This document shows, piece after piece, positions 18,510 to 56,055 of a DNA stretch of 64,000 nt. Below the pieces are notes generated by a model. The model saw nothing but the letters and a program-made list of their open reading frames with translations. It had not been told where the DNA came from and ran no database searches. This DNA comes from Patescibacteria group bacterium. Lineage in GTDB: Bacteria > Patescibacteriota > Minisyncoccia > Phycocordibacterales > SBAW01. A program made the translations under genes and the position numbers. Location: assembly GCA_019752125.1 (NCBI GenBank), contig JAIEMM010000012.1, forward strand, positions 3,437 through 67,436, written 5' to 3'. Every line of letters begins with the position of its first letter. Positions within the stretch are counted from its first letter, which is position 1.

Positions 18510-18530
18510 AACCAAACTCAATAAAAAAAT

Positions 18531-18566
18531 AAAAACTCTCGCCTCACGGCGGGAGTTTTGTTTCTT
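18531..18566 (+). terminator. rho-independent terminator after rplB
   Basis: ctcgcc-tcac-ggcggg stem then ttttgttt. Confidence 0.65.
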
Positions 18567-18589
18567 GCTCTTTGGAGAAAATATCCTAT

Positions 18590-18820
18590 AGTAACGCCTA
18601 GATAGTTCGGGGCCACACTCTACGCTAATGCTGGGATGCCTAGAATTGAAGGTATATGGAGGCCCCACCGTCCTTCGTGTTCCTTGTCCTTCGGCCAGCC
18701 GGGACCAGGGTGCCCGTAATCGCTATGCAGACAGACTCTTGGAACGGTATGTGTGTTGGAAATAGCGAACCCAGATTTTTCAGTTTTGCCTGCCTAGTCC
18801 TTTAGGCAGGTTTTTCTTTT
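18590..18820 (+). ncRNA. candidate small RNA / structured transcript ending in a + strand terminator (18789-18820)
   Basis: ~200 nt non-coding stretch after the rplB terminator, ending in cctgcct...aggcagg + T-run; no family recognised by eye. Confidence 0.25.
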
Positions 18821-18821
18821 G

Positions 18822-18851
18822 TAAAAAAGAAATCCCCGCTGCAGGGCGGGG
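18822..18851 (-). terminator. minus-strand terminator (ccccgc..gcgggg + T-run) after gene 18854-19198
   Basis: Hairpin immediately 3' of the minus-strand stop; near-identical copy at 19259-19287. Confidence 0.6.
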
Positions 18852-18853
18852 GT

Positions 18854-19198
18854 TTAATAGTCGTAGGAGGCGAGCTTGTCGAGGAATTTCATCAGATCGG
18901 AAACATATTCCTTGCCTAATGGAATGCTCGCAGATTCCGTCTCCTCTTTCATGGGATCTTCGTAGCACAGCTTCAGCGACTGGCCGTCGATGTAGACCTT
19001 CAGGTAAATCAGTGTGCTTGGTTTCCCCGGACTATCTTCATCCAGGAATCCAACCTGCACAGCTTCGACCTCGAGGTCGGGGTACAGAGGATGGGAGATC
19101 ATAGAGCACCAAATTCCCAAACCCTTTTTATAGCTAAGCCGTTGTTGCGTTTTTCGGTGGATATCTCCGAAAACGGCTTCAGCAACTTCATACGCCAT
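18854..19198 (-). CDS. hypothetical protein (114 aa), antisense insertion in r-protein cluster
   Basis: ATG with RBS gggaga; own terminator; no recognisable domain. Confidence 0.45.
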   Translation of the reverse strand: MAYEVAEAVFGDIHRKTQQRLSYKKGLGIWCSMISHPLYPDLEVEAVQVGFLDEDSPGKPSTLIYLKVYIDGQSLKLCYEDPMKEETESASIPLGKEYVSDLMKFLDKLASYDY

Positions 19199-19258
19199 AG
19201 AGCAATCTCCCGCGTTATGATTGCCATCTATTCTAGATATAAAAAGTTGTCACTGCAA

Positions 19259-19287
19259 GTAAAAGAAATCCCCGCTGCAGGGCGGGG
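19259..19287 (-). terminator. minus-strand terminator after gene 19297-19500
   Basis: Same aaaagaaatccccgctgcagggcgggg module as 18822-18851. Confidence 0.6.
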
Positions 19288-19296
19288 AAGGGTGTT

Positions 19297-19500
19297 TCAG
19301 GACAGCTCTTGAAGCTGTCTCTTCATGTGGCCACGCAGGTCAGCCTCGAGAGCCTGGGAAGTTGCGGTAACCCAGCACTCGACAAACTCGGCCTCTGTCT
19401 GTTCGCTGAACGGCTTGTACAGGCCGGCGCCCTTGTCGAGACCTTCAAGGTCTTGTGATACGGTCGCCTTTGAAATTGCAACTTCAGGTGCGTCAGTCAT
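19297..19500 (-). CDS. hypothetical small acidic protein (67 aa)
   Basis: Internal ATG 19500 has RBS aggaggg 8 nt upstream; own terminator; no recognisable domain. Confidence 0.4.
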   Translation of the reverse strand: MTDAPEVAISKATVSQDLEGLDKGAGLYKPFSEQTEAEFVECWVTATSQALEADLRGHMKRQLQELS

Positions 19501-19660
19501 CGGTCCTGCCCTCCTTCTAGGCTCTAGTATAGCGCACAGCACACCTGCCGGTAGACAGGTTTGACTCATAAGAGCCTACCTGCTAGTATCTCTGTACTTC
19601 CGTGCCGCAAGGTCTAGCCGCTCTTTGGCTACGACGGGCAGGGAATTTAATTTTGGAAAG

Positions 19661-20011
19661 ATGGCTCGATCACTTAAAAAAGGACCATACGTAGACGAAA
19701 AGCTCCTCAAGAAGATTGAGGGTAAGAAACCGCAGACAGCTGAGGTTATTAAGACGTGGGCACGCCGCAGCCAGATCGCACCAGAAATGGTGGGGTTCAA
19801 ATTCGGCGTTCACAACGGTAAAACACACATAGAGGTGCTTATTTCAGAAGACATGGTGGGTCATCGCTTGGGTGAATTTGCTCTTACGAAGAAATTCGTT
19901 CGCCACGGCGGTAAGATGCAGAAAGAAATGGAACAGAAGGCGAAAGAGTCTGAAATCGCTTCTGCACAGGCCGCAAAAGCAGCTACCGACACTAAGGATA
20001 AGAAGAAATAA
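19661..20011 (+). CDS. rpsS: 30S ribosomal protein S19 with Lys-rich C-terminal extension
   Basis: [12 protein letters not shown]...GHRLGEFA S19 core; ~25-aa extra C-terminus. Confidence 0.9.
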
Positions 20012-22578: not shown

Positions 22579-23115
22579 ATGGCTAACCTCATTCAGGAAC
22601 AACAGAAAACTGTTTTCAATGACCTCAAAAAAGAATTTGAGTGGGCTAACGTCATGCAAGTTCCAAAAATTCAAAAAGTAGTTGTTTCAGTTGGTATTGG
22701 TTCAACTAAAGACAAAAACAAAATTAAGCTTATCGCAGAACGCTTGGCTACTATTACGGGCCAGAAGCCAGCAACTCGTATCACAAAGAAGGCTATTGCG
22801 TCGTACAAGACTCGCGTTGGTGATACTGTTGGCTACCAAGTAACACTCCGCGGTATTCGTGCACAGAATTTCTTGAACCGCTTGCTCCACATCGCGCTTC
22901 CTCGTACGAAAGACTTTAAGGGTATCCCAGCAAACTCAGTCGACGAGATGGGTAACTACACTCTTGGTATCAAAGAACACAGTGTGTTCCCTGAAACTGC
23001 AGACGAAGAACTCAAGGATATCTTCGGAATGGCTATCACTGTCGTTACTACTGCAAAGAACAAAGCAGAAGCAAAAGCATACCTCACACACCTCGGTTTT
23101 CCCTTCAAGAAATAA
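22579..23115 (+). CDS. rplE: 50S ribosomal protein L5
   Basis: 178 aa L5. Confidence 0.95.
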   Translation: MANLIQEQQKTVFNDLKKEFEWANVMQVPKIQKVVVSVGIGSTKDKNKIKLIAERLATITGQKPATRITKKAIASYKTRVGDTVGYQVTLRGIRAQNFLNRLLHIALPRTKDFKGIPANSVDEMGNYTLGIKEHSVFPETADEELKDIFGMAITVVTTAKNKAEAKAYLTHLGFPFKK

Positions 23116-23135
23116 TTTTTAAGAAATATGAAATT

Positions 23136-23163
23136 GGCCCCATGCGGGGCCTTTTTCTTTTTA
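23136..23163 (+). terminator. rho-independent terminator after rplE
   Basis: ggcccc-atgc-ggggcc then tttttcttttt. Confidence 0.75.
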
Positions 23164-23246
23164 TAAATCTACCTTGCTTTATGTTCCACAATTAGGCATA
23201 TTTCCTTTAGAGTTTTCGAGTACACCGTCCACACGAGGAGGATTCC

Positions 23247-23870
23247 ATGGACGTACATCATGAGCCTAAGCGGGCAGCGTTGAGTTCATATGGAGGAGGT
23301 GGAATAAGCCTCAACGGCCTGAACCGCGCGGAAGAGGATATCCTTGAAGGCGCATTCAGGACTGGCCACCACTGGGTCCGTATGGGGCAGAATGGCCGCA
23401 TCGAGCACACACCATCTTTCAATGCCTTGCCGAGTCCGGCTGACGATGACCGTATGCTCCCGTTTTGGAGGGAGGGTGAGAAAAAACCTCCTGTCCAACT
23501 GGAACTGTTCAGCCACGCTGAAACTGGTGACCAGCGCCTACACTCGAGTCGCTCATTCACCATCCAGCACCTGTGCGGCTACGGCTACACGCCGGAGAAG
23601 TACAAGGCGCAAGCTGCCCTCCTTGAGAGTTGGGGGTTCGAGTGTCTACGTTCCCGCCGGGGCAAGACTGGAGAGTTCTGGGAAATCTGGTTCTTGCCTG
23701 GTGTTTGGGCCGCCAAGGGCAGTCTAAAAACGGCAGTGCATCGACTCCCACAGAAAGAGCGGAACGAAGAGACTCAAGCAAAGCTTGCACTTGAATTTAT
23801 CCGTCGTAACGCAAGCTTCGGCACCTTGGACGTATCGGTTCAGCGTCTTGCCCAAGTGCTGGACGACTAA
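23247..23870 (+). CDS. hypothetical protein (207 aa), cassette gene 1
   Basis: ATG ORF; followed by cassette terminator; no recognisable domain. Confidence 0.5.
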   Translation: MDVHHEPKRAALSSYGGGGISLNGLNRAEEDILEGAFRTGHHWVRMGQNGRIEHTPSFNALPSPADDDRMLPFWREGEKKPPVQLELFSHAETGDQRLHSSRSFTIQHLCGYGYTPEKYKAQAALLESWGFECLRSRRGKTGEFWEIWFLPGVWAAKGSLKTAVHRLPQKERNEETQAKLALEFIRRNASFGTLDVSVQRLAQVLDD

Positions 23871-23893
23871 CATTCACGTGGCGACCCCGCAAG

Positions 23894-23946
23894 GGCCGCC
23901 CTTTTTCTTTTGACAAAGAAGTAGTGGGTAGGTAGGGTGGTTTCAG
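23894..23946 (+). repeat. 53-nt repeat copy A: terminator 3' half + promoter (TTGACA-N17-TAGGGT-ggtttcag)
   Basis: Identical to 24344-24396; TTGACA at 23910-23915, TAGGGT at 23933-23938. Confidence 0.7.
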
Positions 23947-23969
23947 ACTGCAACGTAAGGAGGTTCAAC

Positions 23970-24314
23970 ATGTCCGACTGGCTCGATCAGCTCCCATTAT
24001 TGCCCAAAAGTAAGGGGCGGTTGGAACATAAGGAGAGTTGGCCTGAAAAGCTGGCGCTTCAGGTGTTCGATCGGAAAGTACCTACCGACCAAAGGACCCA
24101 CGGTAACGCACTTTTCCAGATCCGCTCCGTGCTCGACCCTGTCACCGTGCAGGAAGACATCACCCACGTAAGGTCGTCAGCCCCTTTGCCTTTCTCGGAG
24201 CGCGATCAGCAGGTGTTCCTTGCGGTAATCCAATGGCTCGGCACTAATATTGGCCGAGGCTTCATGAGCGACTTTCAAAAGCAGCTGGACTCTGAATTTG
24301 AGCGTCGGCGTTAA
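23970..24314 (+). CDS. hypothetical protein (114 aa), cassette gene 2
   Basis: RBS aaggagg before ATG 23970; the upstream GTG (23937) lies inside the promoter repeat. Confidence 0.5.
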   Translation: MSDWLDQLPLLPKSKGRLEHKESWPEKLALQVFDRKVPTDQRTHGNALFQIRSVLDPVTVQEDITHVRSSAPLPFSERDQQVFLAVIQWLGTNIGRGFMSDFQKQLDSEFERRR

Positions 24315-24343
24315 TGTAAGAGCGACCCATCCAGGCCGCCCTT

Positions 24344-24396
24344 TTTCTTTTGACAAAGAAGTAGTGGGTAGGTAGGGTGGTTTCAGTTGATCAACG
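24344..24396 (+). repeat. 53-nt repeat copy B: terminator 3' half + promoter
   Basis: Identical to copy A; TTGACA 24360-24365. Confidence 0.7.
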
Positions 24397-24409
24397 AAAG
24401 GGGCTAGTT

Positions 24410-25045
24410 ATGCTCAGCATAGAGGAAAGATTTGTCGGAGCGTACATGTATGCGCTCAGTGAGGCGCTCATGCAGACGCGCGTAAAGGCTGTTGTGGACA
24501 CGGAAGCATCCGCGCTCTTCACTTTGGTAAAGTCGATTACGAATGGCGGTCTCACAAGCAAAAAGAAGCCTCACTCGCTCATTGAGCTACCCATCATTTT
24601 TGCTCTTCGCTTCCAGCGTGACCCCACAATGCGTACGCAGTTTGTGAAACACCAATTTCTTGAGTGTTCGAGGCAGGAGAAACGGAATGCACATGACCGT
24701 GCAATTCTCCGTAGTGCGTATCTGGCTGAGTTGCTTGAGGGTAGGGGTTCGAAAGGTGTCCAAGATTTCGTTCTTCGGAGCTACAGCACCGGCGTGCTCT
24801 TTACGACGGATGTCGGCGGGTTAGCGAAGGACGGGTTCTTCTTCCCTCTACCGGGCGGTGAGAAATCGATCTTTCCTTTTGTGCCGGGGGACGCACGTAT
24901 GTTCACCGCGGCATGCTTTGGGGCGCTCTACGGTCCAAAGAAGCTTACCTTTGCGGACTGGCAGGAAAAGCTGATCGAGAATCACTCCGGAATCAAGGAT
25001 CTCGGCCGCATGCTCTTCAGGGCAGCTTATGGTTACGAGGTCTAG
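24410..25045 (+). CDS. hypothetical protein (211 aa), cassette gene 3
   Basis: ATG 24410 after gaaagggg; no recognisable domain. Confidence 0.5.
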   Translation: MLSIEERFVGAYMYALSEALMQTRVKAVVDTEASALFTLVKSITNGGLTSKKKPHSLIELPIIFALRFQRDPTMRTQFVKHQFLECSRQEKRNAHDRAILRSAYLAELLEGRGSKGVQDFVLRSYSTGVLFTTDVGGLAKDGFFFPLPGGEKSIFPFVPGDARMFTAACFGALYGPKKLTFADWQEKLIENHSGIKDLGRMLFRAAYGYEV

Positions 25046-25056
25046 AACGATACAGG

Positions 25057-25110
25057 CGACCCATCCGGGCCGCCTTTTTCTTTTGCAATAAATTTTTTGG
25101 GTGGTATGGT
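25057..25110 (+). promoter_or_regulatory. cassette terminator (gcgacccatccgggccgcc + T-run) and degenerate promoter (TTGCAA-N16-TATGGT)
   Basis: Related to copies A/B but diverged after the T-run. Confidence 0.5.
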
Positions 25111-25167
25111 TGGCGCGGTTTGCCTCTCGCCAGAAAGGAGGGGTTAGTTCTACGTCAGGAGACCGTT

Positions 25168-26028
25168 ATGTCCAAGTCAACCGTTCTGCGTCATCCTTTG
25201 GCAGCACAGGGTGCTGTAATTCACGATGTTAGGAACTTTAAACACTGGGTCTCACTCTGGGATGAAATGTGGAAAAAGACTCCCGTCCAGAGCGAGTATG
25301 CAGAAGGTCTGCTACACGCAATCTTCAGCCCCACCCATACGATTTCTGAGCTTCGGGAAGTGTTCCATATCTGCGCCGTCCTTGCTGATGGACACAACTG
25401 TGAACGCTATTTCGTTGCGGAAGGGGAGAAGTACGGTGACTTTAGTCTTGCAGACATCGATTCGCCGCATTTGAACTACCATCCTCGTTGCAACTTGGCT
25501 CGGCGGGCATGGAGGGAGCTCTGCAACAACATGTTTGTCAGAGACACCTACAAGTCCCAATACACGTTGGCTCAGCTCTACGACTTCAGTCAGGGGATGG
25601 AGCCAAATGTGGTCGCGGAGGACATGCTCAGGCTGTTCCATCCTTCGCCTCCATATATGACTTCTCCAGACCATAGAAACTTCTACGGCAATACCAAGGA
25701 GGCGGGGAAGCACATCGAGACCTTTAAGCGTTTCCTGCGAGAGCTGTGGTGCCTGCATGATCCTGAGCGAGTGCCTAAGTATCTGCGTGAGCTGAGGGTG
25801 CGTTCCATCCCACATCTCGTCTGGTCGGGTATGGCCCCGGAGCTCATGAGGGACACTCCGGAAGTCTCTATGGAGGATGAGAATTGGCCTTACGATGAAA
25901 TCCTTGAGTATCTCAAGAGCAGGATTGCGTTCGGCGCGAAGGGCTTGTTGTCCAAGCAGCTTGCCAGCGGATCAGAGCTGACGATGCTCTATATCCAGTT
26001 CACTGCTCGTCGGAAGCTGCACAAGTAG
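25168..26028 (+). CDS. hypothetical protein (286 aa), cassette gene 4
   Basis: ATG 25168 preceded by gaaaggagg/caggag RBS; the longer ORF-track start overlaps gene 3 in another frame. Confidence 0.55.
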   Translation: MSKSTVLRHPLAAQGAVIHDVRNFKHWVSLWDEMWKKTPVQSEYAEGLLHAIFSPTHTISELREVFHICAVLADGHNCERYFVAEGEKYGDFSLADIDSPHLNYHPRCNLARRAWRELCNNMFVRDTYKSQYTLAQLYDFSQGMEPNVVAEDMLRLFHPSPPYMTSPDHRNFYGNTKEAGKHIETFKRFLRELWCLHDPERVPKYLRELRVRSIPHLVWSGMAPELMRDTPEVSMEDENWPYDEILEYLKSRIAFGAKGLLSKQLASGSELTMLYIQFTARRKLHK

Positions 26029-26042
26029 CGACCGTCGATGCG

Positions 26043-26072
26043 GGCGGCCCCAAAAAGGCCGCCTTTTTCTTT
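26043..26072 (+). terminator. cassette terminator D (ggcggcc...ggccgcc + T-run)
   Basis: 7-bp GC stem followed by tttttctttt. Confidence 0.7.
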
Positions 26073-26126
26073 TGCAAATCGAAATTTTAGAAATATTTCA
26101 GTACTCATTTTGCTATTCTCGTCAGA

Positions 26127-26193
26127 GCTGGCAGCACGGTGCGGCACAGGATTGCTAATCCAGGCGTCGAAGGTTCGAGTCCTTCTGCCAGCG
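26127..26193 (+). ncRNA. tRNA-like element / probable pseudo-tRNA (67 nt; good acceptor and T arms, collapsed D-arm; nominal anticodon GCU)
   Basis: GCTGGCA/TGCCAGC acceptor pairing, GAAGG-TTCGAGT-CCTTC T-arm, TTGCTAA loop; only 13 nt where the D-arm should be; no CCA. Confidence 0.35.
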
Positions 26194-26263
26194 TACGTTG
26201 ACCTTAGTAGCTTTGCGGAAGTATCATTACTAACGAGGATAATCCTCTGGCGCTGGCAGAAAC

Positions 26264-26295
26264 AAAACCCCCGTTTGAGCGGGGGTTTTTGTTTT
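26264..26295 (+). terminator. strong rho-independent terminator (aaaaccccc-gtttgag-cgggggttttt)
   Basis: Ends the tRNA-like transcription unit. Confidence 0.75.
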
Positions 26296-26318
26296 ATATG
26301 GCGGAGTATAGAATTTGT

Positions 26319-26347
26319 TTGACTTCCAGGGTGGGGTCAAGTATATT
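26319..26347 (+). promoter_or_regulatory. candidate promoter for rpsN-secY block (TTGACT-N17-TATATT)
   Basis: Near-consensus hexamers; followed by hairpin+T-run (26352-26378) and a ~115-nt leader. Confidence 0.55.
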
Positions 26348-26493
26348 GCTTGAAGCCCATCAGGGCTCCTTTTTTCTGTAAGGTGCCGCTTAGTCGCAAG
26401 GCGAGGCATACCCCCAGAATCATCCTTCGACAGGCTCAGGATAAATAACCAGAGCTCGATCGGAGAAAAGATAAAGAAAGGGATACTATATCC

Positions 26494-26679
26494 ATGGCAA
26501 AGAAATCTACAGTCGCACGCTCAAACAAGACCCCGAAGTTTAAGTCGAGGGTCGTTCGCCGTTGCTTCCGCTGTGGTCGCAAGCGCGCCTTTATGCGTGA
26601 CTTCGGTATGTGCCGCGCTTGCTTCCGTGAAGCAGCCAACGAAGGTCTTATTCCGGGCGTCCGCAAATCATCTTGGTAA
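26494..26679 (+). CDS. rpsN: 30S ribosomal protein S14, Zn-ribbon (type Z)
   Basis: 61 aa with CxxC...CxxC. Confidence 0.9.
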
Positions 26680-41728: not shown

Positions 41729-41859
41729 TCAGCGGGCTTACTCGCCCTAAACCTTCGCAGGAGCGTCGGTTCTACTTCATATGATACTCACTTTGGGGCT
41801 TTTGTCCAGAGGCTGTACAAGAGATGGACACGGGGATAAGCTGGGGATATAATGGGGAT

Positions 41860-42507
41860 ATGCATGAGATTCAAAAAGTGCTCCTCACCATCCTTCAAGA
41901 GAGGGGAATACAGGTGCTTCCACCTTTACGAAAACTTGGCGAACTGACTGGCAAGACCCTTTCCGCGCAACAGGTCAAACACCACTTAGAACAACTACAG
42001 AAGAAAGGATTTATTTCAATAGATAAAAATACAAAAAAGATTGAAATCACAGTTGGTACTGAAAAAAAATCGCAAAAACAATCTTTCTATACACTCCCGC
42101 TGTATGGCGCAGTTAACTGTGGCCCGGCCTTGAGTCTGGCAGAACAAATACCTGAGAGTTTTATAAAAATTTCTTCAAATATTCTTAAGGGTTTTAGATC
42201 CGAGAATCTTTTTGTTGTAAGGGCAAGCGGAGATTCAATGAATAAGGCTGTTGTAGGAGGTAAAAGAATTGAAGATGGTGACTTTTTAGTTGTAGATACT
42301 TCAAAAGTTAACATTCGGGGTAAGGGGGAAATAGTTCTTTCTATTATTGATGGAGCGGCAAATATTAAAAGATTATATAAAGAACAAGATTCTTTTGTTT
42401 TGGTTTCAGACTCCACTAAAGATTATCCTCCAATCTATATTTCAATAAGTGATGATTTTTCAGTAAATGGAACTGTGGTTGCAGTGATGAAAAAGCCAAA
42501 AGGATAG
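41860..42507 (+). CDS. lexA: LexA-like repressor (winged-helix N-domain + S24 peptidase domain)
   Basis: S24 Ser-Lys dyad context (ASGDSMNKA...IVLSI); LexA-type wHTH N-terminus. Confidence 0.6.
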   Translation: MHEIQKVLLTILQERGIQVLPPLRKLGELTGKTLSAQQVKHHLEQLQKKGFISIDKNTKKIEITVGTEKKSQKQSFYTLPLYGAVNCGPALSLAEQIPESFIKISSNILKGFRSENLFVVRASGDSMNKAVVGGKRIEDGDFLVVDTSKVNIRGKGEIVLSIIDGAANIKRLYKEQDSFVLVSDSTKDYPPIYISISDDFSVNGTVVAVMKKPKG

Positions 42508-42744: not shown

Positions 42745-42895
42745 AACAAAAAGCCCGCCGCGGGTAGTGGCCGAAGCCACTCATGCAAGTTTCCCTGCAC
42801 GGCCGGTGAAGGCAGACCCCACGACGGGTTTTCTGGCCTTCACCGGACTTTCGACCTTGCCGATAGGGAAGCTATCGGGTTAGGTCCTTTTTATT
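42745..42895 (+). ncRNA. candidate structured RNA/leader with long imperfect hairpins and a terminator (42853-42895) upstream of the AbiV-like gene
   Basis: gtggc-cgaa-gccac tetraloop hairpin; ccggtgaaggc...gccttcaccgg 11-bp arms; gacc..cgatag-ggaagc-tatcg..ggtc + T-run. Confidence 0.3.
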
Positions 42896-42942: not shown

Positions 42943-43638
42943 TTGAATGGAGGGGTGATTACCAACCAGAAGCTGGATAGAATGGCATTTTTGGCCTTCT
43001 GCAATGCAATTCGTTTGCACGAAGATGCGATAGAACTCTACAAGATCAAGAGCTACTCATCGGCTTTCTTTTTGTCGGTTTTGTCACAAGAAGAGATTGG
43101 GAAAATGCATTTGATAAATGATTATACTTGGCAGCGAGGCACAAGCGATGATCCAAAAGCATACGCTAAAGGTGTCGAAAAAATGTTTGTGGAAGCAATT
43201 TTTCTACATAAACTAAAGCAAGCTCATTTTTTACTAAATTCTCCCATAGAAAATAATTATTCGGCTCGTGGAAGGAGGATTATGGAAGAAGCGTGGAAGG
43301 GGGTACTGGATGGTGAAAAACAAAATGCAGTTTACGTCGGTTTTGGTAGAAAGAACGGGAAAATAGATACTTCTGGGCCAATCAAACACCCATGGCAAGT
43401 TACCGAAAAAGAAGCAGAAACTCAGATCACTAAAATGAATGATTATCTATTAGTATTTGGTCTCGGTCTTCGCTACACCAACTTCGTTTTTGAGAACGAA
43501 GATATAGAATATATGTGGAAGGGAAAAAAGTTTCTCCGTAAAATTTCGTCTCTGTGGAAGAGTTACAGCAGGTCAGCAAAGAAACAAATTAAAACTTATC
43601 AAAAACTGCTTAAAGAAAATATCGTCAACGTCTCCTGA
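42943..43638 (+). CDS. AbiV-like (HEPN-type) abortive-infection candidate
   Basis: N-terminal ...AIELYKIKSYSSAFFLSVLSQEEIGK... resembles AbiV family. Confidence 0.35.
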   Translation: MNGGVITNQKLDRMAFLAFCNAIRLHEDAIELYKIKSYSSAFFLSVLSQEEIGKMHLINDYTWQRGTSDDPKAYAKGVEKMFVEAIFLHKLKQAHFLLNSPIENNYSARGRRIMEEAWKGVLDGEKQNAVYVGFGRKNGKIDTSGPIKHPWQVTEKEAETQITKMNDYLLVFGLGLRYTNFVFENEDIEYMWKGKKFLRKISSLWKSYSRSAKKQIKTYQKLLKENIVNVS

Positions 43639-44624: not shown

Positions 44625-46238
44625 ATGGCAAAGAAAGCACTAATTTACTGCCGAGTATCTTCCGTTAGGCAGGCTACTGAAGGTCATGGCTTGGATGCTC
44701 AAGAACATCGATGCCGTGAATTTGCACGCGCCAAAGACTATGAAGTCGTAACTGCTTTCAAAGATAGTTTTAGCGGCGGAGGCGATTATAGAAATCGTCC
44801 TGGAATGACCAGTCTTTTGGAATATATCGATAAGTATCCACATATAGAGTTCGTGGTTCTTTTTGATGATCTTAAGCGTTTGGCAAGAGATACTATTTTC
44901 TATCTTGAACTGCTGCAGGAATTTAAAATACGAGGTGTGGCGCTTGAGAGCCCGAACATTGTTTTGGGAAATTCAGCGGAAGATGAATTTGTGCAAACTG
45001 TCCTGATGGGTGCTGCACAATTGGAACGCAAACAAAATAAACGACAAGTAGTTCAAAAAATGAAAGCACGATTGGAGAAAGGCTACTGGGCTTTTTATCC
45101 GCCTCCTGGTTACAGACAAGTGAAAGATCCTGTACATGGAAGGATATTAATCCCCACCGATGTAGAAGCCCCCATTATTAAAGAAGCCCTTGAGGGTTTT
45201 GCATCTGGCAGATTTCCGCACCTTACGGATGTAATGAATTTTCTCCGGGAGGTCGGCTTCCGTGGCCGTCCCATCTATGTAGAAGGCGTCAGGCGTTTAT
45301 TAAAGCGAATTATATATGCCGGCTATATCGAATACCCTGCATGGGATGTGGCAACTACAAAAGGTCATCACGAGGCTCTTATAAGTCTTGAGACATATCA
45401 AATTATTCAAGATCGTCTCGCTGGACGTTACAAAGCGCGTGCTCGCAAGACAGATAATCTTTATTTCGTTCTGCGAGGTTTCCTTTTGTGTGCATCTTGT
45501 AGCCATGCATATACCGGCAGCTGGTCGAAAGGGAGGAATGGTAAGTTTCGATATTACCGTTGCAACAAGCCAGGCTGCGAACGTTTAAATAAGAGCATCC
45601 GTGCAGACAAAATTGATAAGGAGTTCGAAGTATTACTCAAATCTGTTCTCCCTAAGCAAGAGATGGCGCAATTCGCCAAGGCGGTAGTCTTGGATATATG
45701 GGCAAGCAAAGTAAAAGATTTTAAAAATGATCAGGCGATGCTTGAACGACGGCTCGCGGCCATCAAGCAGGATATCGACGCTTTGTCCCGTCGCATTGCA
45801 AAGACAGTCGAAGAATCTTTAATACGTAATTACGAGCAACAGATCCTGAGTTTGACCAACGAAAGTAGGGTTTTGCAGGAGCAACTCAAGAATTTGGGTT
45901 TATCAGCAGTAAGTTTTGAAACCGCATTGGAAGTGGTCATGGCGTTTCTCAATAATCCTTTGGCTATATGGGAAAACGGCGACCTAAACGCAAAAAGATT
46001 AGTCTTGCGACTAATCTTTGCGGACAAATTGGCGTACCATCACGAACTTGGTTTTGGAACCGCTCAAAAATCCTTGCTTATAGGTCTTTTTGAGCAGGTT
46101 CATGCCAAAAAATCTCAGGATGTGGAGATGCCGGGAGTTGAACCCGGGTGCAAAGCAAATTCTTTACGCGATCTACCAAACGTAGTTCGTTCTAAGTTCT
46201 CGTCTATCTGCATCAAGAGCGAACAAAAGCGCAGATAG
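44625..46238 (+). CDS. large serine recombinase (resolvase catalytic domain + recombinase domain + zinc ribbon + coiled coil)
   Basis: ALIYCRVSSVRQ catalytic Ser; Cys cluster CASCSHAY...YYRC; 537 aa. Confidence 0.85.
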   Translation: MAKKALIYCRVSSVRQATEGHGLDAQEHRCREFARAKDYEVVTAFKDSFSGGGDYRNRPGMTSLLEYIDKYPHIEFVVLFDDLKRLARDTIFYLELLQEFKIRGVALESPNIVLGNSAEDEFVQTVLMGAAQLERKQNKRQVVQKMKARLEKGYWAFYPPPGYRQVKDPVHGRILIPTDVEAPIIKEALEGFASGRFPHLTDVMNFLREVGFRGRPIYVEGVRRLLKRIIYAGYIEYPAWDVATTKGHHEALISLETYQIIQDRLAGRYKARARKTDNLYFVLRGFLLCASCSHAYTGSWSKGRNGKFRYYRCNKPGCERLNKSIRADKIDKEFEVLLKSVLPKQEMAQFAKAVVLDIWASKVKDFKNDQAMLERRLAAIKQDIDALSRRIAKTVEESLIRNYEQQILSLTNESRVLQEQLKNLGLSAVSFETALEVVMAFLNNPLAIWENGDLNAKRLVLRLIFADKLAYHHELGFGTAQKSLLIGLFEQVHAKKSQDVEMPGVEPGCKANSLRDLPNVVRSKFSSICIKSEQKRR

Positions 46239-46548
46239 ATAAAGTTCAAGTCTTAGACAAACGGGCGAACAATCCGTTTATAGCAACTCGATGTTATAAC
46301 ACTTGATCCTTCCTCACGAGTGTTGGAAGGGAAGTGACACGTTAAGCCTTAGCGTAGGCGAACGCGAAATCATTCGCCGTGAAAAACGGCGATGCAACTG
46401 ATTTGCCAGTTAGAGTTTGGAGCAGTTTAAAGAATTACCCCAGTTCTGATTGGCAACGTAAAGAGTGGTTGCAATGTCTAGGCCTGTCATCCCCAAGAAG
46501 TTCGCGACGCTAACCCGTGCTTCTTGCAGATTTTTGACCTATTCACCT

Positions 46549-49058: not shown

Positions 49059-49061
49059 CTG

Positions 49062-49133
49062 TGGGCGCGGAAGGGATCGAACCTTCGACCATTCGTGTAT
49101 AAGACGAACGCTCTACCACTGAGCTACGCGCCC
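49062..49133 (-). tRNA. tRNA-Ile, anticodon UAU (AUA-decoding)
   Basis: GGGCGCG acceptor, GCTC/GAGC D-stem, anticodon arm TTCGT-CTTATAC-ACGAA, T-arm GAAGG-TTCGATC-CCTTC; CCA not encoded. Confidence 0.7.
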
Positions 49134-54503: not shown

Positions 54504-54593
<90 letters not shown>

Positions 54594-54702: not shown

Positions 54703-56055
54703 CTACTCCTCAAGCATCGTTATCTTTTTGTCTTTGTAGTTCAGTCTGCTTCGTAGGTTGGCGAGTAATTCTCTTTTGTCTGATGTGCTTCCTTCTTTGA
54801 GTAGGTACTTTGCGTATTGCCTGATATTCACATCGTCCTCCTCCACCAGTGAGTTGCCTGATTTTCCATTCACTATCTTTTGCAGTTTGTTGAATCGCCG
54901 TATTTCATCTTCGAGCTTTTGCCTCATGCCCAGCTCGTTAATATTTACGATGTCTATTATTTTCAATAGCTCATCTATCAGCTCTTCCTCACGAATGTAC
55001 TTGTTCTTGCAGTTTCTGTCTCGTGCACGACTGCATCCGTAGTAGATGTAGTGTGCCGATGTGCCGTCTTTGAGTGGTTTCCACTTCTCTTCTGCCGATA
55101 TACCACTCTGGCAGTATCCGCAGGTAAATAATTTCGTGAAGGCGAACTCTTTATTCTCACGCACTATCTGGTCGCGTTTCAGTTGTGCTTGAGCTTTCTC
55201 AAACAACTCTTGAGTGATGAGCGGTGTATGTTTGCCTTGATACCAGTTTCCACTTTCTCGCGGATATTCAAATGGTCCGTAGTAGAAGGGATTATCGAGT
55301 ATGCGGTACACACCACTTAGCGTCAGTGGTTTGTTTCCGCGTGTATGAAAGTTCAGTTCAAACTTTAGCCAGTTGTATATCTTTCTCCCCGAATAGCGTT
55401 CGTACGAGACTTTCTCGAACATTTTCTTTACTATCGGTGCGCGTAGGGTATCGACTGCAATCTGGCACTTCTTGTCCATTAACTTTTGGTTCAAGTATCC
55501 GAGTGGTGCCACCCCAGGCCATAGTCCCATCTCCACCCTCGTTCGTAGTCCGCGCTTTACGTTGATACCTCGGTTGTCATTCTCTAGCTTTGCCTGTGAC
55601 CCCAGAATCATCAACAGGAATTTCTCACTCGGGCTATTGGTGAACCGTTGTCCGAAGGTACGTATCTCCACCAATAACTTTGCGTCCATCAAGTCCACTA
55701 TCTTTCCGAGGTCGCCAGCATTTCTGCTGATACGATCTGGTGCCCACGTCAGTATTCCCGTGAACTTGCCTTGTCGTATTTCCTCGATAATCTCGTTGAA
55801 GACAGGACGTTGCCCCGTCTCTTTTGCCGAGTGTGATTCTCTCTTGATTTCGACAATCTCAAGACCCTCGCGTTCTGCGAGTTGAATCATCTCTTTTATC
55901 TGACTATCTATAGAGAGGATTTGTCGCTCCTCACTTTCGGTCGACTTTCTCGCATAGAGGCAGTACTTAATGATAGGAGCTGGCTCAGCCTGCCTCACGC
56001 CGAGGTTAGTCCTTGATGTTGTTGTTTTTTCCATACAACACAAGGAATGACGCAA
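54703..56055 (-). CDS. large serine recombinase
   Basis: 450 aa; YARKSTESEE catalytic Ser region, recombinase domain, Cys zinc ribbon, C-terminal coiled coil. Confidence 0.85.
   Translation of the reverse strand: MRHSLCCMEKTTTSRTNLGVRQAEPAPIIKYCLYARKSTESEERQILSIDSQIKEMIQLAEREGLEIVEIKRESHSAKETGQRPVFNEIIEEIRQGKFTGILTWAPDRISRNAGDLGKIVDLMDAKLLVEIRTFGQRFTNSPSEKFLLMILGSQAKLENDNRGINVKRGLRTRVEMGLWPGVAPLGYLNQKLMDKKCQIAVDTLRAPIVKKMFEKVSYERYSGRKIYNWLKFELNFHTRGNKPLTLSGVYRILDNPFYYGPFEYPRESGNWYQGKHTPLITQELFEKAQAQLKRDQIVRENKEFAFTKLFTCGYCQSGISAEEKWKPLKDGTSAHYIYYGCSRARDRNCKNKYIREEELIDELLKIIDIVNINELGMRQKLEDEIRRFNKLQKIVNGKSGNSLVEEDDVNIRQYAKYLLKEGSTSDKRELLANLRSRLNYKDKKITMLEE

Follow-up and report, generated by a model that had tools for sequence, protein, structure and literature searches.

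Few bacterial RNAs are known to mimic tRNA. The short list includes tmRNA, which carries a tRNA-like domain, and YrlA; both keep the 'top half' of the molecule, made of acceptor stem and T-arm, with a reduced D region. Animal mitochondria make use of a tRNA-Ser(GCU) that has no D-arm, and tRNA-shaped modules are found fused to structured RNAs of other kinds, as in 3'ETS-leuZ, the tRNA-miRNA of MHV68 and MALAT1 mascRNA. To our knowledge, the non-coding RNAs of the Patescibacteria (candidate phyla radiation, CPR), which have tiny genomes, are almost uncharted. Here we describe a tRNA-like element, and the cassette that contains it, in a 64,000 nt stretch of a Patescibacteria group bacterium (GenBank assembly GCA_019752125.1, contig JAIEMM010000012.1, positions 3,437 to 67,436 of the forward strand), hereafter the window. 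The element lies in the ribosomal protein (r-protein) gene cluster, between rplE and rpsN. Judging from its sequence and that of its relatives, it is probably, though by no means certainly, a gene for a functional non-coding RNA that derives from a tRNA and is transcribed on its own, and that some Paceibacteria carry as an accessory cassette in their rplE-rpsN hotspot. Its role would most likely be that of a non-decoding tRNA decoy, mimic or regulator, rather than that of a translational adaptor. A tRNA-shaped non-tRNA maintained by selection would lengthen the short list of bacterial tRNA mimics.

Anatomy and conservation of the cassette

The extent of the cassette is evident from its relatives. 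In two of these, L001 and L004, the junction upstream of rpsN reads ...GGCCGCCTTTTTCTTTTG(T) followed directly by TTGACTTC..., with no intervening sequence; the window and a third relative, L006, hold around 240 nt at this point. As the terminator of L001 and L004 abuts the -35 box of rpsN, positions 26076-26318 of the window represent a precise insertion. The parts of the cassette are as follows:

26076-26318 (+): whole cassette of promoter, RNA and terminator, about 240 nt; an insertion relative to relatives in which the upstream terminator abuts the rpsN promoter
26082-26126 (+): A/T-rich upstream block
26111-26119 (+): extended -10-like motif TGcTATTCT, read from the sequence, its last base 7 nt before G26127
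26127-26193 (+): tRNA-like element of 67 nt, reading 5' to 3' as RNA GCUGGCA-GCACGGUGCGGCA-CAGGA-UUGCUAA-UCCAG-GCGUC-GAAGG-UUCGAGU-CCUUC-UGCCAGC-G
26127-26133 with 26186-26192 (+): acceptor stem GCUGGCA/UGCCAGC, 7 of 7 pairs perfect
26134-26146 (+): D region GCACGGUGCGGCA, 13 nt
26147-26163 (+): anticodon arm CAGGA-UUGCUAA-UCCAG with one A.A mismatch; anticodon GCU at 26154-26156
26164-26168 (+): variable loop GCGUC, 5 nt
26169-26185 (+): T-arm GAAGG-UUCGAGU-CCUUC, canonical, with a 5 bp stem, G53-C61 and a UUCRA loop
G26193 (+): discriminator, directly 3' of the acceptor strand
26194-26204 (+): linker UACGUUGACCU, directly 3' of the discriminator
26194-26263 (+): trailer, about 70 nt between the tRNA-like part and the terminator
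26204-26233 (+): hairpin P1 of the predicted folds, UUAGUAG/UUACUAA with inner UGC-GGAA-GUA
26235-26247 (+): hairpin P2, GAGGA-UAA-UCCUC (GAGGAUAAUCCUC)
26250-26261 (+): trailer strand GCGCUGGCAGAA, in which the 5' acceptor 8-mer GCUGGCAG recurs
26264-26297 (+): strong intrinsic terminator called by program, with an 11 bp stem and 4 nt loop (stem-loop 26264-26289) and a U-run
26298-26318 (+): spacer between the terminator and the rpsN -35 box (TTGACT at 26319); part of the insertion, absent in L001 and L004

The sequence-only reading, an earlier note on this DNA made from its letters alone, had described a 67 nt element with a 7 bp acceptor stem, a canonical T-arm, a D region of 13 nt and a GCU anticodon, followed by a trailer of about 70 nt and a terminator, and all of these were found where it had placed them. 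The eighth acceptor pair that it allowed for, G26134-C26185, could form at the cost of the T-stem. The element matches the Rfam tRNA model RF00005 over its full length (model positions 1-71) at 29.6 bits, and its L006 counterpart does so at 29.2 bits; hence both scores reach the gathering score of 29, by a margin of less than 1 bit, rather than falling far below it. The E-value is 0.042 when all 4227 families are run on the whole window, and 4.6e-4 for a region of 701 nt. By comparison, the window's two genuine tRNAs, for Ile (UAU) and Ser (GCU), reach 75.8 and 55.1 bits, so that 'degenerate', the term used by the sequence-only reading, is a fair description. Default ARAGORN makes no call for the element; its relaxed pseudogene mode (-ps) reports, over the whole 64 kb, the element and the two genuine tRNAs and no further match, whilst its mitochondrial mode labels the element mtRNA-Ser(gct).

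The D-arm departs from that of a regular tRNA. The U8/N9 spacer is absent, and the model deletes positions 8-9 and leaves a D-stem of 2 bp; ARAGORN draws one of 3 bp, with one pair weak. The anticodon loop UUGCUAA has the canonical 7 nt, with U33 and A37; the A.A mismatch in its stem is present in both lineages, and ARAGORN placed the anticodon stem of the window copy in another register. The 5 nt variable loop is not that of a class II tRNA-Ser, whereas the tRNA-Ser of the host (54504-54593) has a long arm. Derivation from this gene, or from that for tRNA-Ile, was considered and rejected, as the similarity is limited to generic or universal tRNA positions. No CCA is encoded at the 3' end of the element. 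The genuine tRNA-Ser carries an encoded CCA and tRNA-Ile does not, which implies that the host has a CCA-adding enzyme; the missing CCA of the element therefore decides nothing.

The evidence that the cassette is maintained comes from its pattern of divergence. A search of 185,579 species-representative genomes with a pattern composed of the anticodon arm and T-loop gave seven matches, one of which is a complete cassette. This is L006 (CAYGIN010000004.1, labelled Saccharibacteria), in which the cassette occupies the same position, before the rpsN promoter, and the r-protein genes are 84-92% identical at the DNA level to those of the window. The window, L006 and L001 are roughly equidistant, being 60-62% identical to one another at the third codon positions of secY; across the third codon positions of rpsH, rplO and secY, the window and L006 differ at 252 of 701 sites (36%). 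In the core of the cassette they differ at only 6 of 166 positions (3.6%), as opposed to 23 of 71 (32%) in the variable patches (Fisher p = 5e-9 for core against patches, and 2e-20 for core against third positions). The core was defined as the upstream block, in which 44 of 45 positions are the same (98%) and one differs, the tRNA-like part (3 of 67 positions differing), the linker (0 of 11) and the stretch from the P1 3' strand through the trailer seed (2 of 43). The variable patches are the P1 5' strand and loop (10 of 16, plus a 2 nt deletion), the terminator (9 of 34) and the spacer (4 of 21).

The nature of the changes is in keeping with this mosaic. Two of the three substitutions in the tRNA-like part are unpaired, and the third, G5-C68 to G5.U68, keeps its pair. 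Within the terminator three base pairs have changed on both sides with pairing retained, and these compensatory changes show the terminator to be real. The P1 5' strand, in the most diverged part of the cassette, still pairs in L006 with the conserved 3' strand, in a shifted register. Even divergence would be expected of a dead relic, and even similarity of a recently shared tract; the mosaic observed instead points to purifying selection on the RNA, and fits that better than an att remnant.

The upstream block contains a putative extended -10 promoter, from which transcription would start at A26126 or G26127, leaving a leader of 0-1 nt. A -10-like TATCTT also lies 6 nt ahead of G1 in the window's genuine tRNA-Ile gene, hence a near-leaderless start may be a local habit of tRNA genes. 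A protein-coding role for the cassette was rejected, the sole ORF that spans it (26038-26322) being broken by a 2 nt indel in L006. Regulation of rpsN by attenuation was also discarded: L001 and L004 keep the same rpsN promoter and leader without the cassette, and no antiterminator pairing is evident.

The cassette is rare. An identical L006-type sequence is present on contigs of several samples, and three identical L006-type contigs were among the gaps walked. In around 30 related rplE-rpsN gaps, reached through clusters of S14, S8 and L5 proteins, the element is absent save from the window and the L006 type. When a covariance model was built from the tRNA-like part together with the trailer and run over 336 kb of fetched loci, it recovered only itself, the L006 type and ordinary tRNAs. 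There is one copy in the window and one per related genome. The pattern search and three cassette-specific scans of viral contigs, together with BLAST searches of phages and plasmids, found nothing relevant. Marks of a mobile element were sought at the cassette, which has no mobility genes, no convincing terminal inverted repeats and no target duplication; the only junction repeat is a 4 nt TTTG microhomology.

In metagenome contigs, the same pattern gave 31 matches, all of them ordinary-looking tRNA(GCU) genes with a short variable arm, or fragments of such genes. Genes of this kind, of class I shape and scoring 48-55 bits against RF00005, recur in metagenomes (L012, L016, L019, L027, L030, L013, L015/L039 and L026), some in phage-like tRNA arrays and some on organelle-like contigs with a UGA-reading tRNA. 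The nucleotides C35 and U36 are identity elements for arginyl-tRNA synthetase (ArgRS). Some of these tRNAs might read AGY codons as arginine, an identity which their C35/U36 would fit.

Two folds and the readings of the RNA

Hairpin P2 is the same in L006 and is present in every predicted fold; its stem resembles the anticodon stem, CAGGAU[UGCU]AAUCCAG, as can be seen directly in the sequence. Downstream of it, the strand GCGCUGGCAGAA, also the same in L006, can pair with 26183-26194 (UUCUGCCAGCGU, the 3' acceptor strand and its flanks) to form a 12 bp helix that is incompatible with the acceptor stem. When the trailer was subjected to dinucleotide shuffling, a helix as good arose in only 9 of 5000 cases. 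The 12 bp helix belongs to the minimum-energy fold of the full transcript and in both lineages beats an enforced cloverleaf by about 8 kcal/mol. With the 5' strand displaced, the freed GCAG can pair with CGGC in a D-stem around the loop CACGGUG; this stem has four positions, with three standard pairs and an A.G mismatch, and needs GCAG to be out of the acceptor stem. The loop contains the A and the GG expected in a D-loop, and matches the D-loop (CAYGGYGA) of the bona fide tRNA(GCU) genes L026 and L015. The likeness to these organelle-like genes suggests the GCAG...CGGC D-stem, although it could be due to chance. When the anticodon and T arms are enforced, the open cloverleaf without a D-arm has energies of -60.0 and -56.0 kcal/mol in the window and L006 lineages, and the closed fold, with the D-arm restored and the acceptor end closed by the trailer, -61.3 and -54.2 kcal/mol. 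As these lie no more than 2 kcal/mol apart, the RNA looks bistable between two tRNA-like topologies.

If the cassette is indeed a functional RNA gene, then the extended -10 promoter would start the transcript at G1 or 1 nt before it, and the terminator would end it some 170 nt further on. The 5' 67 nt could fold first into the cloverleaf, a fold shown to be possible, with a canonical 'top half' of acceptor stem and T-arm and the D-arm sacrificed. The trailer copy of GCUGGCAG would then take the place of the 5' strand opposite the 3' acceptor strand, closing the acceptor end and freeing GCAG for the D-stem. The outcome would be a tRNA mimic with a 3' end that is either open or masked and that, when open, could be reached by RNase Z, by the CCA-adding enzyme or by a tRNA-binding protein. 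Such competition between the 5' acceptor strand and its trailer copy may provide a simple natural model for gating access to a tRNA 3' end.

Several observations weigh against a functional RNA gene of this type. No partner protein or target of the RNA was identified. The upstream block has no -35 box, which the promoter scan requires and for want of which it did not call the block. Folded alone and without constraints, the 67-mer does not take a cloverleaf as its minimum-energy structure and reaches a z-score of only -1.75. The distinct cassette sequences total two, the window and the L006 type, which makes statistical covariation support impossible for either fold, and the single stem substitution between the lineages is compatible with both. 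Next to the cassette, rpsN and its leader are unusually conserved as well, and a shared recombination tract covering cassette and rpsN retains some residual plausibility, although the diverged patches inside the cassette argue otherwise. The rpsN gene is around 99% identical between the window and L006, but it is equally conserved in L001, which has no cassette; hence its conservation appears to be a property of rpsN rather than the sign of a shared tract.

One alternative is a decaying, functionless pseudo-tRNA or the relic of an att site, conserved only because the DNA tract was recently shared. The marginal covariance model score, the defective D-arm, the patchy distribution, the location in a hotspot of gene turnover and the near identity of the adjacent rpsN would all suit it, yet we judge it very unlikely: the divergence is uneven, the changes in the terminator are compensatory, rpsN is as conserved where the cassette is lacking, and the element forms a full cloverleaf, not just the 3' piece of one, with its own promoter-like block. 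Furthermore, the element is unlike the tRNA-Ser of the host, the gap contains no integrase, and what the trailer repeats is the 5' acceptor strand, whereas an att duplication would repeat the 3' end of a tRNA. These points also speak against the att remnant proposed by the sequence-only reading, whose option of a tRNA-like regulatory RNA is favoured by the promoter-like block, the terminator with its compensatory changes, and a core far more conserved than either synonymous sites or the neighbouring patches. Its third option, a mobile-element-associated structure, agrees with the accessory hotspot and the patchy distribution, but not with the lack of mobility genes, convincing terminal repeats or any viral, phage or plasmid copy. 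Its mention of the 'other serine recombinase' presupposes that a further one lies closer to the element; the four ORFs of the gap that were screened have no recombinase domain, and the sole serine recombinase found in the window, not all of the ORFs of which were screened, is that at 54703-56055 (-), beside the genuine tRNA-Ser. It is somewhat less improbable, although still unlikely, that the 3' RNA is the functional product and acts by base-pairing, the tRNA-like part being only a handle for processing or stability. An RNase Z cut after G26193 would release an RNA of around 100 nt, and a U right after the discriminator, as here, is known from Bacillus to suit this enzyme; alternatively, a possible internal promoter, TTGACC-18-TATCAT, with its -35-like TTGACC inside the linker at 26198-26203, could give a small RNA (sRNA) of around 62 nt consisting of P2, the single-stranded UGGCGCUGGCAGAAAC and the terminator. 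Among the targets considered, the best match is the 3' end of the tRNA-like part, so that the two would constitute a pair made of RNA alone. The near identity from the P1 3' strand through the seed, a layout of hairpin, single strand and terminator that is typical of sRNAs, and the conservation of both promoter hexamers around a diverged spacer speak for such a product. However, the tRNA-like part is equally conserved, including the D region and anticodon loop that a mere handle would not need; the promoter spacer is 18 nt in the window but 16 nt in L006, and it retains hairpin potential despite its divergence, a better fit to structure than to a promoter; the promoter scan found 2 sites where 1.4 are expected by chance; and no other target was found in the window.

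There is also a small chance, below that of a base-pairing 3' RNA, that the element is a working if structurally reduced tRNA, the 67-mer being aminoacylated after RNase Z cleavage and CCA addition, and serving either to translate AGY codons or to donate its aminoacyl group in a process other than ribosomal translation. With its C35/U36, ArgRS would be a better candidate for charging it than seryl-tRNA synthetase (SerRS): bacterial SerRS requires a long variable arm, the main identity element of its substrate, and the element has none. The perfect acceptor stem, the canonical T-loop with G53-C61 and the anticodon loop of 7 nt with its U33 and A37 favour such a tRNA, and all three are fully kept in L006; the -10-like motif has the same placement as that of the genuine tRNA-Ile gene, a CCA-adding enzyme is implied for the host, and the D-armless mitochondrial tRNA-Ser(GCU) provides a precedent. 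Against these stand a score of 29 bits, as compared with 55-76 for the tRNAs of the host and 48-55 for other tRNA(GCU) genes with short variable arms, the lack of a U8/N9 spacer and regular D-stem, the A.A mismatch in the anticodon stem, a normal tRNA-Ser(GCU) already in the genome, and a conserved trailer that masks the 3' acceptor strand. The distribution is also sparse for a tRNA, with the element in 2 of about 30 related gaps and, by the pattern used, in 1 of 185,579 species representatives. Charging, if it occurs, would make it the first tRNA with a reduced D-arm in a free bacterial genome. The most speculative reading, to which we attach the lowest probability of all, is a self-gated tRNA mimic that alternates between an open cloverleaf with free acceptor ends, processable and perhaps chargeable, and a closed four-arm form in which the trailer copy of the 5' acceptor strand captures the 3' strand, in effect a circularly permuted tRNA. 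In its boldest version, which shares in this same low probability, it would be an RNA-only addiction module, the open form acting as a harmful tRNA that misreads AGY codons (for example through charging by ArgRS via C35/U36), with the trailer or the sRNA from the internal promoter as its antisense antidote. If true, this would account for the selfish, patchy occurrence of the cassette at a hotspot whose contents elsewhere include a RelE-type toxin-antitoxin pair.

The rplE-rpsN gap and other features of the window

The cassette lies in a gap of 3.4 kb (23116-26493) between rplE (22579-23115) and rpsN (26494-26679), in a genome whose S14, S8 and L5 proteins cluster with those of Candidatus Adlerbacteria (Paceibacteria). 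The gap also contains four orphan ORFs (23247-23870, 23970-24314, 24410-25045 and 25168-26028, the last being NCBI K2Q00_03345), each with its own promoter and a GGCCGCCTTTTTCTTTTG-type terminator; none of the four has a match in Pfam, PHROG or PADLOC. Comparison of the window with L001-L004, L006, L043-L066 and L073-L082 reveals the gap to be an accessory-gene hotspot across the Paceibacteria, with different ORFs in every lineage fetched. These include a 75 aa orphan, an RHH and RelE-like pair, MerR with a hydrolase, a PG-binding protein, an IMP cyclohydrolase and an M16 peptidase. The upstream neighbours of the cassette are unrelated, being ORF-D in the window and an IMP-cyclohydrolase-like ORF in L006, whilst the sole homologue of ORF-D is found in the same gap of L004, where the RNA is absent; hence the RNA is not tied to a neighbouring protein gene. 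The gap thus appears to be a general entry point for accessory genes within the genome's most conserved operon, which matters where this operon is used for phylogenetic markers or binning. Also in this gap is a perfect direct repeat of 53 nt (23894-23946 and 24334-24386), comprising a terminator tail, a TTGACA-17-TAGGGT promoter and a 5' untranslated region (UTR), that precedes two unrelated orphan ORFs. It suggests shuffling of cassettes through recombination between common terminator-promoter modules.

The region around rpsN has features of its own. Within 26319-26420, the rpsN promoter TTGACT-17-TATATT is directly followed by a terminator-like hairpin at 26354-26367 (AGCCCAUCAGGGCU plus a U-run) and then by the segment GGUGCCGCUUAGUCGCAAGGCGAGGCAUACC. 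Both hairpin and segment are kept in L001, L004 and L006, and they have no Rfam match; together they are a candidate r-protein leader or attenuator. The synonymous sites of rpsN hardly vary: at third codon positions the gene is 93-98% identical among the window, L001 and L006, as compared with 60-72% for rpsH, rplO and secY, and default ARAGORN calls a 92 nt 'tRNA-Asn' within the rpsN coding region of L043 and L047 (4046-4137). There may be an RNA-level constraint on the rpsN mRNA.

A second interruption of the r-protein cluster is found between rplB and rpsS (18510-19700), with minus-strand orphan ORFs at 18854-19198 and 19297-19569 that have no Pfam match; relatives have a different minus-strand ORF of 64-67 aa at this site. 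The genuine tRNA-Ser(GCU) gene (54504-54593, +), with its encoded CCA, is followed after 110 nt by the large serine recombinase (54703-56055, -), which has Resolvase, Recombinase and zinc-ribbon domains, and this locus is probably an integrated element using the tRNA-Ser(GCU) gene as its attachment site. The tRNA-Ile (UAU) gene (49061-49133, -; 75.8 bits, CCA not encoded) represents an unusual bacterial route to the reading of AUA codons. A LOOT RNA (86.8 bits; 42766-42886, -) lies between a LexA/S24-peptidase-like gene (41824-42507, +) and a HEPN AbiV-family gene (42943-43638, +).

Comparison with known systems

Nothing relevant was found in the literature on tRNA-like RNAs in CPR bacteria, and no described family was found in which the trailer duplicates the 5' acceptor strand. 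The putative RNA gene nevertheless shares parts of its design with several known systems. It resembles a canonical bacterial tRNA (RF00005) in its 7 bp acceptor stem, G73, canonical T-arm and T-loop, 7 nt loop with GCU, own terminator and a score that reaches the gathering threshold; it differs from one in lacking the U8/N9 spacer, in having a D-stem of only 2-3 bp and an A.A pair in the anticodon stem, and in scoring around 25-45 bits lower. The 5 nt variable loop and the conserved trailer of about 70 nt, which competes for the 3' acceptor strand, set it apart from class II tRNA-Ser(GCU), and it is not similar to the tRNA-Ser of the host. With the animal mitochondrial tRNA-Ser(AGY) it shares the anticodon, a short variable region and a short loop in place of the D-arm. 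However, the element is bacterial and chromosomal (on contigs of several samples), has a fully canonical T-loop and has no dedicated SerRS to explain its charging; most reduced mitochondrial tRNAs have no such T-loop. The likeness is one of form only, and convergent at most.

In the tRNA-like domain of tmRNA and in YrlA, as in this element, the acceptor and T-arm are retained and the D region is reduced. As in YrlA, the acceptor end of the element, in its masked fold, would be closed by other RNA. Unlike tmRNA, it has no mRNA-like or pseudoknot part and keeps an anticodon arm, and the tmRNA of the window is encoded separately (46120-46494); unlike YrlA, it shows in no predicted fold a Ro/Rsr-binding terminal stem formed by the 5' and 3' ends. 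Neither the tmRNA nor the Y-RNA-like families of Rfam have a match in the region at E <= 10.

The fusion of a tRNA-shaped module to a structured non-tRNA RNA, from which it might be separated by tRNA-processing enzymes (putatively in this case), is shared with the tRNA-linked RNAs 3'ETS-leuZ, MHV68 tRNA-miRNA and MALAT1 mascRNA. The bacterial examples of this arrangement follow genuine tRNAs, unlike the trailer of the element. In none of these systems does the tRNA part pair with its own trailer, whereas here the trailer carries a copy of the 5' acceptor strand and can form with the 3' strand a helix of 12 bp.

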